Positions 3,989 through 50,202 of a DNA stretch of 64,000 nt are shown here, piece by piece (the stretch's first letter is position 1; every line of letters starts with the position of its first letter). The translations under genes and the position numbers were made by a program. Origin of the DNA: a virus; the IMG/VR virus record IMGVR_UViG_3300019487_000018, positions 69,459 through 133,458 of that record. One strand, given 5' to 3'. The notes beneath the pieces are model-generated. The model was given only the letters and a program-made list of their open reading frames with translations. It was not told the DNA's origin and ran no database searches.

Positions 3989-6136
3989 ATGGCAACACTC
4001 GTTAGCCCAGGCGTAAGCGTAACCATTACGGATGAGAGCTTTTTCATCCCAGCTGCGGCTTTGACAGTTCCACTGCTTTTCATCGCTACTGCAGATGAAA
4101 AGAAACAGCCAGACGGCGTAACGGATGCTCCAGGCACCTTTGAAAGCAACGTTATTCGTACTGTCACATCGCTTCAGCAGAGCACACAACTCTATGGTAT
4201 TCCGCGCTTTTTGGAAGATGAACAAGGATTGCCACTCAATGGCGATGCCCGTAACGAATACGGTCTTTTCGCTCTGAATCAGTTTCTCGGCATTGGTGAC
4301 CTCGCATACGTTATTCGTGCAAACGTCAACTTAAACGACAACCTCGATGATCTCCGCACTCTGTGGGATCAGAAAATGCAAGAAGCAAGTTTTGTTCTCG
4401 AGAACATCACTGCACAATTCATTTCTGAATACAACACAGTAAACGGTTACACACCGTCGTCAGGTGCAACATCAGGATATCAAGAAGCAGTTTTCGCTGC
4501 AGCAACGATCCTTCCAGCAACTGCTACAGGTCTTGTTGCTTTGACGACATACAGCTTCCAAGCAGTCGTTGATGGTGTAACATTTAACGGTTCGTTCCTT
4601 GGATCTGCTGCGTCAACGTTTGGTACATTGCTGACACAGATCAACACAATTCTTGGTGGTGTAGCTATCGCGTCGTTCTTCAATGGCGTAACACCTGCTC
4701 CAGTTGGCCCAGCAAACAGGATTCGCATTACAAGTGCAACTACTGGTCTGACATCAACAGTTGTGATTGACACAGCGTTTGTGGGCTTCGGTCCTAACGT
4801 ATTCCCAGCATTGGTTGGTCCACCAGCATTCGTTACTTTGGGTCCGCAGGTGCGTGGTGACACACTGTTCAAGTACACGGTAACTTCTGCAGAACTGCTT
4901 TCGTTGACAGAACAAGCAACAGCGTTCATCTGGGAAATGTTCTCGTTCAGCCGCGGTGTTCCGCCGCTGCATGACGACTTCATGGATAACCACACATCGA
5001 GCCCACTTCCAGTGTTTCCGAACGGCTACGATCAGCCGCCTGTTCCGCCTGGTTATCTTGGTTTCCAAGGTATTGAAGCCGCTTGGGTTGCAGGTAATTT
5101 GGGATCGACGCCTGGTCGTGAAGACGAATGGACACCAACAGAAGCATCGAACACATTACTTGGTGCGGCAGATGATTTCAAATTCACGACTGAATTCTTG
5201 AACAAGACCGCGCTTGGCGCTAACGATGCAGCTCGTCGCGTTGCAATTGTGACCGCTCTGCAAGCATCGATCAACAGCAACACAGACATTCGTGGTGAAA
5301 CATTCGAGTACAACCTGATCCTCTGCCCAGGTTACTGGGAAACCGTTGATGAGTTGAACAACCTCGTCATCGACATTCAAGAAGAGGCTATGGTTATTGC
5401 TGACACACCATTCAGTATGGATCCAGATCAAGTCGTAGCATGGGCTGCGACAACCGGTCGCACGCAAACACGTGATGTAGCATACTATTACCCACATGGC
5501 CTTGCATCGAACCTTGACGGCAAGAACGTATTCATTGCTGCTTCTGGTACAGCTCTTCGCACGATTGTGTTCAGCGATGAAACAGCTGAGATCTGGTTTG
5601 CTCCAGCAGGTACTCGTCGTGGTCAGGTTTCCGGTGTAACAGATGTTGGTTACGTAACCGGCACACTTGGCACACCAACAACATTCACACCAGTGGCTCT
5701 TAACCAGGGACAGCGTGATAACCTGTACAAGTACTTCACCAACGTCAACCCGATCGTGTTCTTCCCAGGCCGAGGCATTCTAGTGTGGGGTCAGAAAACA
5801 TCGGCACCAGATGCAAGCGCACTCGACCGTATCAATGTCATGCGTCTTGTCATGTATATCAAGCGTCAGCTTCGTAAGAACACAATGAGCTTCGTGTTCG
5901 AACCGAACGACCAACTGACCCGTGACAACTTAAAGGCAATGGTTGATGCATTCCTTGGTGATCTGATCGTCAAGCGTGGTCTGTTCGACTTCGCTACGGT
6001 TTGCGATGAAAGCAACAACACTCCAGATCGTATCGATAGAAACGAGATGTACATCGACGTAGCATTGAAGCCGGTGCGTGCAGCCGAATTCATCTACATC
6101 CCACTACGTATCGTTTCCACGGGAGCTCAGATCTAA
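3989..6136 (+). CDS. Contractile tail sheath protein (T4 gp18-like)
   Basis: N-term LVSPGVSVTITDES; C-term WFAPAGTRRG, NPIVFFPGRGILVWGQKT, SALDRINVMRL, FEPND, DRNEMYIDVALKPVRAAEFIYI; AAGGAG RBS. Confidence 0.95.
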   Translation: MATLVSPGVSVTITDESFFIPAAALTVPLLFIATADEKKQPDGVTDAPGTFESNVIRTVTSLQQSTQLYGIPRFLEDEQGLPLNGDARNEYGLFALNQFLGIGDLAYVIRANVNLNDNLDDLRTLWDQKMQEASFVLENITAQFISEYNTVNGYTPSSGATSGYQEAVFAAATILPATATGLVALTTYSFQAVVDGVTFNGSFLGSAASTFGTLLTQINTILGGVAIASFFNGVTPAPVGPANRIRITSATTGLTSTVVIDTAFVGFGPNVFPALVGPPAFVTLGPQVRGDTLFKYTVTSAELLSLTEQATAFIWEMFSFSRGVPPLHDDFMDNHTSSPLPVFPNGYDQPPVPPGYLGFQGIEAAWVAGNLGSTPGREDEWTPTEASNTLLGAADDFKFTTEFLNKTALGANDAARRVAIVTALQASINSNTDIRGETFEYNLILCPGYWETVDELNNLVIDIQEEAMVIADTPFSMDPDQVVAWAATTGRTQTRDVAYYYPHGLASNLDGKNVFIAASGTALRTIVFSDETAEIWFAPAGTRRGQVSGVTDVGYVTGTLGTPTTFTPVALNQGQRDNLYKYFTNVNPIVFFPGRGILVWGQKTSAPDASALDRINVMRLVMYIKRQLRKNTMSFVFEPNDQLTRDNLKAMVDAFLGDLIVKRGLFDFATVCDESNNTPDRIDRNEMYIDVALKPVRAAEFIYIPLRIVSTGAQI

Positions 6137-45038: not shown

Positions 45039-45143
45039 ATGTTCGATAGAAAGAAGCAACGATTGAAGTGGGGAAGGGCAAACGGCGAATTATCAGCTCA
45101 CGAGCAAACACTCTTAAAAATGATGCAACTGTTACGGAAATGA
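45039..45143 (+). CDS. Small hypothetical protein (34 aa; not in ORF track)
   Basis: AGGAG RBS; MFDRKKQRLKWGRANGELSAHEQTLLKMMQLLRK*. Confidence 0.4.
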   Translation: MFDRKKQRLKWGRANGELSAHEQTLLKMMQLLRK

Positions 45144-45176
45144 CATTGATTCTTGAAGACCTCAAAAGGATAAACA

Positions 45177-45710
45177 ATGGAAATCTACGACGCACAAGAA
45201 CTGGCGCAGAGGAATTTGATTGTAAAGCACTACGCTGGATCACATGCATACGGTACAGCTCTGCCTACATCCGACATTGACTTTCGCGGAATTTTTGTCG
45301 CTCAGCCTGTCAACGTTCGGACACCTTTCTTTCCAATCACGGAAGTTGAAGTGTCGACTGAACAAGATACAAAACTGTACGAGTTGGCAAACTTCATGAA
45401 GCTTGTTGTTGACTGCAACCCGAACGTTGTTGAAACATTGTGGGTTGCAGATCGCGACATTGTATTCCGTACTCCTGCATACGATTTGCTTCGTAGGCAC
45501 GCGCCCGATCTGTTGTGTTCGAAGATTGCTTTCACAACGAGTGGCTATGCCTTGGCACAGTTGAAACGGATCAAGGGACATAACAAATGGATTACACAGG
45601 CTGATAAAGGTATAAAAAAACTGCGTCATGCTTTCAAGATGAGTGAAATAGATTACAAATGGCTTGAAGAACATTTTGATGAAACAATCGTTAAACGAGT
45701 GGTTGAGTAA
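45177..45710 (+). CDS. Pol-beta-superfamily nucleotidyltransferase (Nuc-transf/RlaP-like), N-terminal half
   Basis: GSHAYGT..TSDIDFRGIF catalytic motif, NPNVVETLW, GYALAQLKRI. Confidence 0.85.
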   Translation: MEIYDAQELAQRNLIVKHYAGSHAYGTALPTSDIDFRGIFVAQPVNVRTPFFPITEVEVSTEQDTKLYELANFMKLVVDCNPNVVETLWVADRDIVFRTPAYDLLRRHAPDLLCSKIAFTTSGYALAQLKRIKGHNKWITQADKGIKKLRHAFKMSEIDYKWLEEHFDETIVKRVVE

Positions 45711-45835
45711 TGTTTTACGTTTATGGTCTAATCGATAGTTTCACCAATAAAGTTTTCTATGTTGGTAAGGGCTGCAAAGATACCATCGGAAACACGAGAG
45801 AAAATTCGTGCAACACTCAAAAGGAAAGCAAATGA
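45710..45835 (+). pseudogene. GIY-YIG-like homing endonuclease remnant (41 aa; not in ORF track)
   Basis: MFYVYGLIDSFTNKVFYVGKG, then in another frame SETREKIRATLK (NUMOD3-like); TAATG overlap at the 5' end and ATGA at the 3' end. Confidence 0.75.
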
Positions 45836-47631
45836 GCAGAGACACTTTACTTAATGATCCTGACGTGATGTTGCTTTGTAAACATTCTCCACGTCAAATT
45901 GACTTTGTCTCATTGGTGCACAACTTTACGCCTGAAAAACGGTTTAAGGTTGACCTTAGTGAGTTCCACAAAGGCTACCGATTGGTACCATTTGCAGCGG
46001 ACACATATGGTGTATACGAATCTGCCAATCATGAAACGTTCACGGAAAGCGACGGAACGTTGAACACCGTGTATGAAGGTAATACACACGAGTTGGGTTC
46101 ACCGTTGATGATTGTTAAATTCAACAAAGACGTCTATCTGAGTGCAAAGGAAAAATGGAGTCAATATTGGACGTGGAAGAGAGAACGAAACGTTGTACGA
46201 AACGCTTTGGAAGAGCAATTTGGATATGATTGTTATACTGACGATACAGAGTTTCTTACGAACGATGGTTGGAAAAAGTTTGATGAGGTGTCAGAAACGG
46301 ACACTCTCGCTACTTTCAATCCATTATCTCATAAGGTTGAATATCAAACGCCGAGAGAACGAATTGAAGGAACGTTTACCGGAAATCTGTATCATTTTAC
46401 AGGCCAACACGTAGACGTATGTGTTACACCAAATCATAAAATGTACATAAGAGAGTTTTCACGGACGCTTGACAAACATGTGAGTGATTGGTCATTTGTT
46501 GATGCAGCGTTTGTTCCGGAATGTTTTGATACACTTCACACCATAGTACCGAAAAAAGCGCGACAGAATTTGCCCAAAGGATTCACTAAAGCAATCTTAG
46601 ATTACATTCCACTGCACTCCTACTTACGAGTCTTGGGATGGTACATTAGTGACGGAAGTTGCTCCTTTCAACCTAACGGTTGCGTTTCATGTGTATCGAT
46701 TTCACAATCGAAACCACAATCGCGATTGACACAAAACCTGACTCGCCAACGTAAACTCAACAAAATAAAATGTACGGAGAAGGTATACGAGGCAAAAGGA
46801 ATAGCAAACTTTCCTGAAAAGCGTTGGTTTTTCGATCAAAAACTGTCCACAATGATATACGAAGATTGTGGACATGGTAGTCATCAAAAGCGAATTCCTC
46901 AATGGTGCTTTGAGTTGACACAGCGTGAGATGAACATACTCCTTACGTGCTTGTTGCAAGGCGACGGAACAAAAAAGAACCATCAAGAAGAAACTTATGT
47001 TTATTATACAATCAATGCAGCACTTGCTGACGATGTACAACGATTGGCCTTTTTGTGTGGGTTTGAAACATCAAAATGGGGTCCTTATTATTCGTCAACG
47101 TTGTTTGATGATAATCTGGAAATGTACCAAGTGCATATAAACAAGAAAGCGTCTAATACAAAAAGAACTTATCGTAGTAACAATAATATTCAAACAATAC
47201 CCGTTGTAAATCAAAGAATTGTTTGTTTTATGACTTCCAACCACACTCTTGTTACACGAAGAAACGGAAAAATAGCACTCCACTCGAATTCAAAGCATGC
47301 AATGCACTTGGTTCGCTTGCTTCGCATGGGCGTGGAAGCTCTAACTGAAGGCAAGATCATCGTTCGTCGTCCAGACGCAAAAGAACTGTTGGAGATCAGA
47401 GCTGGTTCGTGGACTTATGAGCAGGTGGTGGAGTACGCTGAAAAGATGGACGTCATGGTCCGTGAACAGCTATATCCAACAACCAGCTTGCCTAAGAAGC
47501 CGAACTACAAACTTGCGGCACAGTTGACGATTGAGGTTCAAGACATGATGTGGAACCGAACCATTCGCACAATGAGTGAAGAGGAGAAGTTTCTGATCGT
47601 TGGCAACCAACAATACAGGATCACAGACTAA
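45832..47631 (+). CDS. Nucleotidyltransferase C-terminal half, containing an intein
   Basis: ATG 45832 with AAGGA RBS; PRQIDFVSLVHN..WKRERN..LEEQFGYD[intein]SKHAMHLVRLLRMG. Confidence 0.8.
   Translation: MSRDTLLNDPDVMLLCKHSPRQIDFVSLVHNFTPEKRFKVDLSEFHKGYRLVPFAADTYGVYESANHETFTESDGTLNTVYEGNTHELGSPLMIVKFNKDVYLSAKEKWSQYWTWKRERNVVRNALEEQFGYDCYTDDTEFLTNDGWKKFDEVSETDTLATFNPLSHKVEYQTPRERIEGTFTGNLYHFTGQHVDVCVTPNHKMYIREFSRTLDKHVSDWSFVDAAFVPECFDTLHTIVPKKARQNLPKGFTKAILDYIPLHSYLRVLGWYISDGSCSFQPNGCVSCVSISQSKPQSRLTQNLTRQRKLNKIKCTEKVYEAKGIANFPEKRWFFDQKLSTMIYEDCGHGSHQKRIPQWCFELTQREMNILLTCLLQGDGTKKNHQEETYVYYTINAALADDVQRLAFLCGFETSKWGPYYSSTLFDDNLEMYQVHINKKASNTKRTYRSNNNIQTIPVVNQRIVCFMTSNHTLVTRRNGKIALHSNSKHAMHLVRLLRMGVEALTEGKIIVRRPDAKELLEIRAGSWTYEQVVEYAEKMDVMVREQLYPTTSLPKKPNYKLAAQLTIEVQDMMWNRTIRTMSEEEKFLIVGNQQYRITD
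46231..47289 (+). mobile_element. Intein (353 aa) with LAGLIDADG homing endonuclease
   Basis: Starts CYTDDTEFLT..GWK, block B VCVTPNHKMY, LGWYISDGS and LLQGDG motifs, ends VCF..NHTLVTRRNGKIALHSN; +1 residue is Ser; removal restores GYDSKHAMHLVRLL. Confidence 0.92.
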
Positions 47632-48685: not shown

Positions 48686-50202
48686 ATGCAAATACGAATA
48701 AGGATACTCAATGAAGTATACGTTGTTGTTCTGGATCTTCTACCAGAGCACGTCGATTACTTCTACGAAAAATACGCTGTTCATGCGCCGAACTACTTCT
48801 TCAATCCGCGCTACAAACTAGGCCAGTGGGACGGTAAGATTCGCTTCTTTCACAAGACGGGCAAGACATACTTGTACCTGTTGGAAGACCTCTTGCCGCG
48901 TATCGTCAATCTTGGCTACAAGGTCGTCTTAGAAGACCTGCGTGACAACGTTCTGGTTGCAGCCGACGAAATCGATGCTGACTTGTTTAACGCCGTAAAG
49001 CATCCTGACACAGGTGAAGCTACGGTACTTCGCGAACATCAGGTTCAGCTGTAAATTCACTTATCCGAGAAGGTTTTGGTACAGTGATAGCATCAACCGG
49101 ATCTGGCAAAACTCTAATGTGTGCTGCGTTGTGTTATCAGTATGATAAGTTTGGATTGAAGTCGTTAACAATCGTTCCAAACAAGGACTTGATTCGTCAA
49201 ACACGCCAAACATACATTCATTACGGACTCGACACAGGCGAATATAGCGGCGAACGAAAGACACTTGGACATCAACACGTTGTTTCAACGTGGCAAGCAC
49301 TTAAGAATGCACCGGAAGTGATCACGATGTTCAACATTGTCATCGTCGATGAGGCGCATGGTTTGAAAGGCAATGTCCTGTCAACAATCCTGACCGACCA
49401 TGCTGCAAAGGTCCCGTATCGCTTTGGTTTCACTGGTACGCTGCCAAAGGACAAATCTGATGCTTGGGCTGTTCATGTGGCCGTTGGTCCAGTCCGCTAC
49501 CAAGTTCCAGCTTTTGAACTGATCGAGAAGGGACTTCTTGCCAAGATCAATATTGATGTGGTCCAACTGACTGAAGATCTGACTGAAGAGTACGACCAAT
49601 TCATTGCCGACACACCAAACATTCCCAATAATGAGCAGCCGACGTATGCAGAGTTCAAAGAAGGCTACTTTCCAGACTTTACAGCTGAGAAGTCATACTT
49701 GCAACACAAGGAAGACCGGATCACATATCTTGCGCAGTATATTGAAGCAAAGCGGGATGCAAAAAGGGGAAACGTTCTCTGTCTCATAGACAACATTGCA
49801 TTTGGTCGAAAACTCGCTGCAGAAATCAATGGAGCTATTTTCGTCAATGGTAAGGATGTTAGATCAACGAAGGAACGAAAACAGATCTATGACTTGTTTG
49901 CTTCTCACGACGATCTTGTCGTGATTGCTACGGTCCACATTGCAGGAACTGGCATTGACATTCACCGCATCTTCAACCTAATGTTAATCGATATTGGAAA
50001 ATCATTCATTCGAGTGATCCAAGCAATTGGTCGAGGACTGCGCATGGCAGAAGACAAGGATAGCGTTCACATCTCTGATTTGACGAGCGATTTAAAGTAC
50101 AGTCGCAAACATATGCGAGAGCGAATAAAGTTCTACAAAGAAGCTCAATACCCTCATAAGCTACACAAAATCAACTACTCGAAGCTTGTCCTCGAGGACT
50201 AA
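48686..50202 (+). CDS. uvsW: UvsW-like SF2 helicase, interrupted by a frameshift near 49046
   Basis: N-part (PRYKLGQWDGKIRFF..VLREHQV) stops at 49054; the -1 frame continues AVNSLIREGFGTVIASTGSGKT..DEAH..GFTGT..QAIGRGLR. Confidence 0.85.

Follow-up and report, generated by a model that had tools for sequence, protein, structure and literature searches.

A jumbo-phage gene for an RlaP-type nucleotidyltransferase, probably split by a now-decayed homing endonuclease gene and separately invaded by an intein

The DNA analysed here (the window) is a stretch of 64,000 nucleotides (nt), positions 69,459 to 133,458 of the 193-kb IMG/VR virus record IMGVR_UViG_3300019487_000018, which belongs to an uncultured jumbo phage of about 350 kb; a protein-cluster record of this phage gives a contig of 351.8 kb. 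One of its loci consists of three consecutive plus-strand open reading frames (ORFs) in which each stop codon overlaps the next start: the N-half of 177 amino acids (aa), a stub of 41 codons, and the C-half of 599 aa. Very probably, these are what has become of a single RlaP-type nucleotidyltransferase gene that was cut into two cistrons by a GIY-YIG endonuclease gene, since decayed, and that separately acquired an intein, the two halves presumably still assembling into an enzyme.

The process that we propose would have involved 1) the insertion of a free-standing GIY-YIG gene into the codons of a flexible surface loop that separates the nucleotidyltransferase domain from the remainder of the protein; 2) the conversion of one gene into two cistrons by an insertion comprising a tail on the N-half, the endonuclease gene, and a head of about 20 aa on the C-half, whose ribosome-binding site and start codon would be supplied within the endonuclease 3' end; 3) in this phage lineage, the deletion of about 527 nt inside the endonuclease gene, leaving a dead 41-codon ORF with both ends; and 4) in a separate event, the arrival of a LAGLIDADG intein at the conserved site between GYD and (T/S)KHAMH in the downstream half. 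One mRNA would now yield the 177-aa N-half and a 599-aa precursor, from which self-excision of the intein would leave a C-half of 246 aa; this removal would have to precede assembly because the insertion site lies in the modelled interface. The two polypeptides would then assemble non-covalently into an enzyme adding nucleotides to damaged RNA 3' ends, and the stub, devoid of endonuclease function, would serve at most as a ribosome relay between the overlapping stops and starts.

The halves of the enzyme

The N-half scores 39.1 bits against the Pfam family PF10127 (RlaP), above the cutoff of 23, and corresponds to positions 30-194 (of 351) of phrog_388 (E 1.8e-36). Positions 234-342 of the same profile are matched by the part of the C-half that follows the intein, the C-extein (E 3e-29), which is about 70% identical to its relatives. 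The window's N-half retains every column that is invariant across 43 split N-halves, including the Pol-beta signature made of G, S, D-x-D, and the D of the D-T-K motif, and the C-half too retains all columns invariant among its relatives. Homologues in cultured phages are single genes, e.g., GAP32_154 (413 aa), PVP-SE1 gp166 (353 aa), a Vibrio phage protein (416 aa), and DU_PP_I p185 (700 aa). When the halves are aligned to such unsplit homologues, as the preliminary description of this DNA had advised, N-half residues 13-175 pair with GAP32_154 residues 8-172 and the C-half pairs from its residue 12 with GAP32_154 from residue 189, the sole part missing being about 16 loop residues. Judged by their sequences, the two large ORFs are parts of one RlaP/PF10127 RNA 3'-end nucleotidyltransferase. 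RlaP enzymes add 1-2 nucleoside monophosphates to RNA 3'-OH ends (PMC12776372) and are thought to act in RNA repair; their nucleotidyltransferase domain is joined by a C-terminal helical domain, the last helix of which packs against it (PMC12776372, PMC7824862). Our copy of the PDB yielded no solved RlaP structure by sequence or by fold; the matches that it gave were weak Pol-beta nucleotidyltransferases such as kanamycin nucleotidyltransferase and HalB.

The residues at the break are part of this argument. The preliminary description had the catalytic N-half stop at 45710, after KGHNKWIT and about 37 extra residues, and so it does; these residues are not junk, however, since they are conserved in more than 50 split metagenomic N-halves, 43-76% identical to one another, all of which end at the same alignment column. 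This tail aligns to GAP32_154 residues 140-172, an in-frame insertion of that unsplit protein. The C-half had been described as restarting at 45832 with its own ribosome-binding site, which is right, about 18 residues before PRQIDF, where we count 19. This head is conserved in the C-halves of relatives, and at 11 of 18 positions it agrees with the insert of P0226, an unsplit protein of the long type. Tail and head together form a one-piece insertion in long-type unsplit proteins (GAP32, P0226, P0126), and both are absent from the unsplit short allele P0365. The coupling of the ORFs by TAATG and ATGA overlaps is likewise present (Table 1).

P0365 has 354 aa and is 91% identical to the N-half and 88-93% identical to the C-half of the split locus L007, and it has eight residues in place of the L007 tail, endonuclease, and head. 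It defines the empty site, with an inserted block that consists of the 37-aa tail, the endonuclease gene, and the head of about 20 aa.

The splitter and its remnant

Relatives were collected through exact-protein look-up and an IMG/VR scan. Several of them (L006, L007, L008/L009, L014, L016, L092) have a GIY-YIG/NUMOD3 gene exactly between the halves, of 219-224 aa where annotated, and these endonuclease-bearing loci share with the window the gene order gp32-UvsX-...-UvsW. In loci of the L006 type the N-half has 174-188 aa and the C-half, free of intein, 226-246 aa. The relatives' endonuclease ORF starts about 25 nt past the N-half stop, and its 3' end runs about 20 nt into the C-half.

The stub retains both ends of such a gene. 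Over the first 24 residues it shares 83% identity with the N-terminus of the intact 223-aa endonuclease of L006 (pairwise E 3e-13), which bears out the earlier reading of the 41 codons as a GIY-YIG remnant; the stub occupies positions 1-26 of 223 in a profile built from three intact endonucleases and also matches phrog_5356 (E 3.6e-5) and PF22945 (E 0.015). In another frame, nucleotides 45783-45854 encode S-E-T-R-E-K-I-R ... N-E-Q, approximately the 22 last endonuclease codons, which align to the C-terminal ends of intact endonucleases, weakly if taken alone (E 0.09). This retained 3' end overlaps the C-half start by 23 nt, and the C-half ATG is embedded in the N-E-Q codons, at the same place as in L006. 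The endonuclease-equivalent span measures 145 nt in the window vs. 672 nt in L006. The middle of the gene has therefore lost about 527 nt, a number not divisible by three. Placement was achieved for the two retained ends; the attempt to locate the deletion breakpoints by aligning the DNA of the stub with that of intact genes was given up because of noise at this degree of divergence and of ambiguity from the repeated NUMOD3-like motifs. An active GIY-YIG endonuclease needs a catalytic domain of about 90 aa and a DNA-binding region, whereas the stub retains only profile positions 1-26, followed by a frameshift; it is a catalytically dead remnant, unable to cut DNA. Because it retains both ends of the endonuclease gene, the endonuclease came first and decayed later. 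The earlier proposal of a split by a since-decayed endonuclease is supported by the single-gene state of distant homologues and by the intact endonuclease between the halves in relatives of the same gene order. It had been added that the idea would fail if homologues were normally two genes with the same boundaries. They are so as a clade-wide split, but because this clade has an endonuclease between the halves and the nearly identical P0365 is unsplit, the observation supports the split instead.

In a second sub-clade of the same gene order (L013, L081, L093, and the contig of P0041), this insertion site is occupied by a different endonuclease of about 340 aa. The gene at L013:4030-5052 (also in L081 and L093) matches phrog_314, phrog_15427, and phrog_22215, with a faint NUMOD3 signal; no GIY-YIG N-terminus was detected in this endonuclease. 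In L064 the split is kept without any endonuclease; between the halves lies a 64-nt spacer, which has a ribosome-binding site of its own. There, within L064:3977-5315, the N-half stops at 4558, the spacer contains GAGGAA, and the C-half starts at 4623; the closest relatives of L064 are L013, L081, and L093, with the gene for the endonuclease of about 340 aa at that place. The stub in the window and the spacer in L064 imply that the splitter was lost without re-fusion at least twice.

Side observations concern other nucleases near or in homologous genes. In Vibrio phage 2.275.O (L004:1467-2486) a 339-aa GIY-YIG gene directly abuts the 5' side of the unsplit 416-aa nucleotidyltransferase gene; it is free-standing, beside that gene and not inside it. 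A second, different split occurs at L010:1771-3759 (also in L077), where a 251-aa PD-(D/E)XK / TnsA-N-like nuclease gene lies between a 269-aa N-part, unsplit at the first site, and a 136-aa C-part. That break is located about 15 residues upstream of the intein site, and several proteins of 269-288 aa share the same short foreign tail at their end.

Modelled reassembly

In the AlphaFold model of the unsplit long-type P0226 (predicted local distance difference test, pLDDT, 93), a single loop has low confidence (residues ~182-196), and it is this loop, between helices of the insertion, that contains the break point; further helices extend from residue 298 to 421. The complex that we modelled is the L007 pair, whose members are 68% and 60% identical to the window halves. 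It scored 0.82 vs. 0.00 for the best of three controls; 58 of 80 solved complexes attained that mark, as did 2 of 110 mismatched pairs (rough counts, own alignments being used). At least 95% of the contacts recur between runs, and the partner pLDDT is 85. The confident interface takes in the tail (140-173) and the head (2-20), as well as the neighbourhood of the intein site (133-142) and the C-terminal helix; residues 202-223 of chain 2 touch residues 72-84 of chain 1. As modelled, the C-terminal helical domain packs on the nucleotidyltransferase core. The relative's pair supports the view that the halves bind each other, with the caveat that halves of a split gene, or of one fold, tend to pass such a test. 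The comparable split enzyme that had been envisaged is in agreement with both the homologue comparison and this model, and the break itself is likely mended neither by RNA nor by protein splicing, the halves associating non-covalently.

The intein

The C-half is as long as 599 aa because it contains a 353-aa intein, inserted exactly between G-Y-D and (S/T)-K-H-A-M-H of intein-free homologues. Hundreds of unsplit RlaP proteins of about 700 aa carry it too (571 hits; closest P0107, 64% identity). Its model has a pLDDT of 94.5, with TliVMA, PI-SceI, and PI-PfuI as best fold matches (E 5e-15 to 4e-11) and I-DmoI as fold match of the endonuclease part; the predicted structure has a Hint fold and a two-motif LAGLIDADG domain. 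All columns invariant across 37 same-site inteins are retained, among them Cys1, the His of block B, the two acidic residues of the LAGLIDADG motifs, and the terminal Asn. The intein ends in His-Ser-Asn and is followed by Ser at position +1. Of the class 1 features it has Cys1, T-P-N-H in block B, the terminal Asn, and the +1 Ser, each of which is invariant or nearly so in the 37 same-site inteins. It departs from class 1 in its penultimate residue, which is Ser where Gly is usual at this site, with His one position earlier. Phage inteins with a penultimate Gly or Ser do splice (PMC5050341), and we assume that this one is competent.

Same-site inteins have an invariant Cys at block F (residue 332; window 47224-47226), the position of the class 3 nucleophile. 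A class 3 assignment was rejected: Cys1 is invariant and position 12 of block B is Met, not Trp. P0117 was considered as a second intein-bearing split C-half and discarded, the break in its contig (L015) lying elsewhere, with a 33-nt gap and probably a frameshift.

Alternative explanations

The strongest competitor is a dead gene, in which split, decayed endonuclease, and intein are steps in the decay to a pseudogene that yields no active enzyme. Three selfish-element events struck this one gene, and in the same record a 1-nt deletion breaks the neighbouring UvsW-like gene. Several points weigh against our own explanation, some of them in favour of this one: the His-Ser-Asn end of the intein is found in 1 of 103 inteins at this site (65 end in HGN and 29 in QGN); the pair that was modelled is a relative's; even the closest relative at intermediate distance shares only about 68% identity; and a phage could tolerate a dead RlaP gene. 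We nevertheless consider decay of the whole gene improbable, for four reasons. First, both halves and the intein are fully open, with all family-invariant residues. Second, many lineages have kept the split form while diverging to about 50% identity. Third, the stop/start overlaps and the ribosome-binding site are intact. Fourth, a split without endonuclease persists in L064.

A group I intron reaching from KGHNKWIT to PRQIDF, once with an endonuclease ORF, would restore an unsplit protein by splicing. This had been raised as an alternative at the outset, although no intron core had been seen. Phage homing endonucleases often reside in group I introns, and the interval 45597-45888, about 290 nt, is within the range of small introns. 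It has found no support and is very unlikely: Rfam gave no match at E<=1 in this region of the window or in the loci of five relatives; the ORF spacing in relatives, with a start about 25 nt past the stop and an overlap with the C-half, is too tight to accommodate a ribozyme core; tail and head show conservation at the protein level, have fixed ends, and are homologous to the in-frame insert of unsplit proteins; and the C-half has its own ribosome-binding site and ATG.

Covalent joining of the halves by a split intein would recall the 'fractured genes', which also have an endonuclease gene between two gene halves (PMC2677866). We give almost no credence to such trans-splicing here, for the tail (37 aa) and the head (19 aa) lack intein blocks, a Cys or Ser nucleophile at the tail start, and a terminal His-Asn, are both too short for a split intein, and stay in frame within unsplit long-type proteins. 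Translational bypass of the T4 gene 60 type was also rejected, as relatives have 670-1100 nt between the halves and the stop/start overlaps of the window ORFs are ordinary. Finally, the record is a metagenomic assembly with one probable indel error nearby, but an assembly chimera, which the preliminary description had named as a way to overturn its claim, or a sequencing error is practically excluded because two independent assemblies from other data sets, L011 (ENA) and L012 (Logan), reproduce the 177/41/599 layout and in about 7.9 kb depart from the window at 2 bases, and the same arrangement with an intact endonuclease occurs in many relatives.

Polymorphism and history of the split

Among the 80 closest IMG/VR loci the majority are unsplit and five, L064 included, are split at this site. 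By these comparisons, the split is old, widespread, and polymorphic, and clade-wide rather than private to this phage. A tree of the N-domain (129 rows, 140 columns) mixes split, short unsplit, long unsplit, and intein-bearing forms with one another, and the split state needs 22 changes, at least nine of which are forced by well-supported branches. This fits what is expected if homing or recombination moves the block among alleles. We rejected the tree as a guide to the direction of evolution, because interspersed architectures fit recombination or homing and give no direction.

The preliminary description needs three corrections: the split is an old and polymorphic one, not confined to this phage; tail and head belong to the inserted block; and the C-half also requires protein splicing. 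A further, doubtful possibility is that tail and head are element-borne assembly peptides carried with the endonuclease gene by co-conversion and that the insertion of the long-type proteins is a healed scar. If so, an invaded RlaP gene would survive being cut in two, the insertion domain of about 75 aa in long-type RlaP (GAP32, RaK2, XaC1, and others) would be what healed after loss of the endonuclease, and homing-endonuclease traffic would create new protein domains; the intact endonuclease, the 41-codon stub of the window, and the 64-nt spacer of L064 would be stages of that path. The opposite direction, with an insertion domain already in place when the endonuclease arrived, accounts for these data no less well. 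No endonuclease remnant was seen in the variable linker of the long-type proteins. The stretch K-Y-I-K-G-F-I-D in the GAP32 linker was examined as a fossil of the endonuclease N-terminus and dismissed, since other long-type linkers are variable and have no such match.

Layout and genomic context

Table 1. Features of the split nucleotidyltransferase locus, in window coordinates.
Feature	Position	Strand	Remarks
N-half ORF	45177-45710	+	177 aa; link to stub TAATG, 45708-45712
Stub ORF	45710-45835	+	41 aa; link to C-half ATGA, 45832-45835
C-half ORF	45832-47631	+	599 aa; ATG at 45832
N-half nucleotidyltransferase domain, Pol-beta-type	45177-45596	+	Residues 1-140, the last being KGHNKWIT (133-140); PF10127, phrog_388
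N-half C-terminal tail	45597-45710	+	Residues 141-177, including stop TAA at 45708-45710
GIY-YIG endonuclease stub	45710-45835	+	First ~26 codons (45710-45787) endonuclease N-terminus; remainder frameshifted
3' end of former endonuclease gene, other frame	45783-45854	+	NUMOD3-like; stop at 45852-45854
Shine-Dalgarno-like AAAGGAAAG of C-half	45820-45828	+	Read from the sequence; within retained endonuclease 3' end
C-half N-terminal head	45832-45888	+	Residues 1-19, ahead of PRQIDF
C-half N-extein, middle domain	45889-46230	+	Residues 20-133, the last being FGYD; from alignment with unsplit and split homologues
Intein, 353 aa	46231-47289	+	C-half residues 134-486; Cys1, T-P-N-H block B, two LAGLIDADG motifs
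C-extein, C-terminal helical domain	47290-47631	+	113 aa, beginning with S-K-H-A-M-H, plus stop

The locus is surrounded by gp32, a UvsX/RecA-like gene, and a UvsW-like helicase gene. Compared with the otherwise identical L011, the window has a 1-nt deletion at 49040-49060 (CAGGTT-CAGCTG vs. CAGGTTGCAGCTG), which breaks the 505-aa UvsW-like helicase into ORFs at 48686-49054 and 49084-50202; the cause may be an assembly error or a genuine frameshift of this record. At L008:7396-10023 and L009:4170-6797 the UvsW-like helicase has 875 aa and a LAGLIDADG_3 match, which suggests that it holds an intein not present in the window's phage. Just 5' of the N-half, a frame at 45068-45180 weakly matches phrog_3322, an endonuclease family of phages, at its C-terminal end (positions 123-154 of 162, E 0.023) and may be a second endonuclease remnant or a chance match. 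By blastn against phage records no close cultured relative was found, the best hits being short stretches of 65-82% identity.

Significance and comparison with known systems

The locus provides natural intermediates that show the fate of a gene after its split: the endonuclease decays, as in the window, or vanishes, as in L064, and the gene stays in two pieces. The ends of the element hold the stop codon, the ribosome-binding site, and the start codon, together with protein segments on which the halves would now depend. In uncultured jumbo phages the RlaP gene is a hot spot of selfish DNA: one site is used by two families of endonuclease, another by a third nuclease gene, and yet another by a very common intein. 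Annotation pipelines would call the pieces of this one enzyme 'nucleotidyltransferase', 'hypothetical', and a 599-aa orphan. The natural two-piece RlaP is also a test system for the cooperation of nucleotidyltransferase and helical domains.

Gene fragmentation of this kind is already known. In Aeromonas phage Aeh1, according to what Friedrich reportedly described in 2007, nrdA is split by the free-standing endonuclease gene mobE. As in that case, a free-standing homing endonuclease gene would have made two cistrons of one enzyme gene, new C- and N-terminal tails flank the insertion, and reassembly without splicing at the break is expected. The host gene differs (an RlaP nucleotidyltransferase vs. 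ribonucleotide reductase), as does the endonuclease family (GIY-YIG, decayed to a stub, vs. HNH), and reassembly is modelled here. The tails of Aeh1 NrdA are essential for activity (Crona 2011, PMC3045599); unlike in that system, the tail and head of the window have homologues in unsplit long-type proteins and need not date from the insertion. Other split genes are T4 gene 39/60 with mobA and gene 43, which has a seg gene in phage 25 and a short spacer in 44RR (PMC2988022). Gene 43 resembles our case in that relatives have either an endonuclease gene or a short spacer, as do the L006-type loci compared with the window and L064; the order of events was left open there, and the stub answers this question for one family by showing the direction. 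New aspects are RlaP as the host gene; the scale, which extends to a large clade of uncultured jumbo phages; the presence of up to four different selfish elements in one gene; and a stub that shows the order of events.

By Pfam score the enzyme belongs to the same family as PfRlaP and PaRlaP (PMC12776372; jumbo-phage survey in PMC7824862), and it shares with them the N-terminal nucleotidyltransferase and C-terminal helical domains, packed in the same way in the modelled interface. The characterised RlaP enzymes are single bacterial polypeptides encoded beside RtcB/RtcA, whereas the window enzyme is in two pieces with an intein and, unlike them, sits among recombination and replication genes. 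Inteins related to this one occur in cluster C1 mycobacteriophages (23 examples; Kelley 2016, PMC5050341), whose LAGLIDADG-type inteins lie in a PF10127-type nucleotidyltransferase, adjoin a conserved motif, and, like that of the window, have a non-canonical penultimate residue. Their nucleotidyltransferases are aligned with the window C-half across the intein by tblastn; these proteins differ from ours in being only about 30% identical, in belonging to a different phage group, and in having an unsplit host gene.

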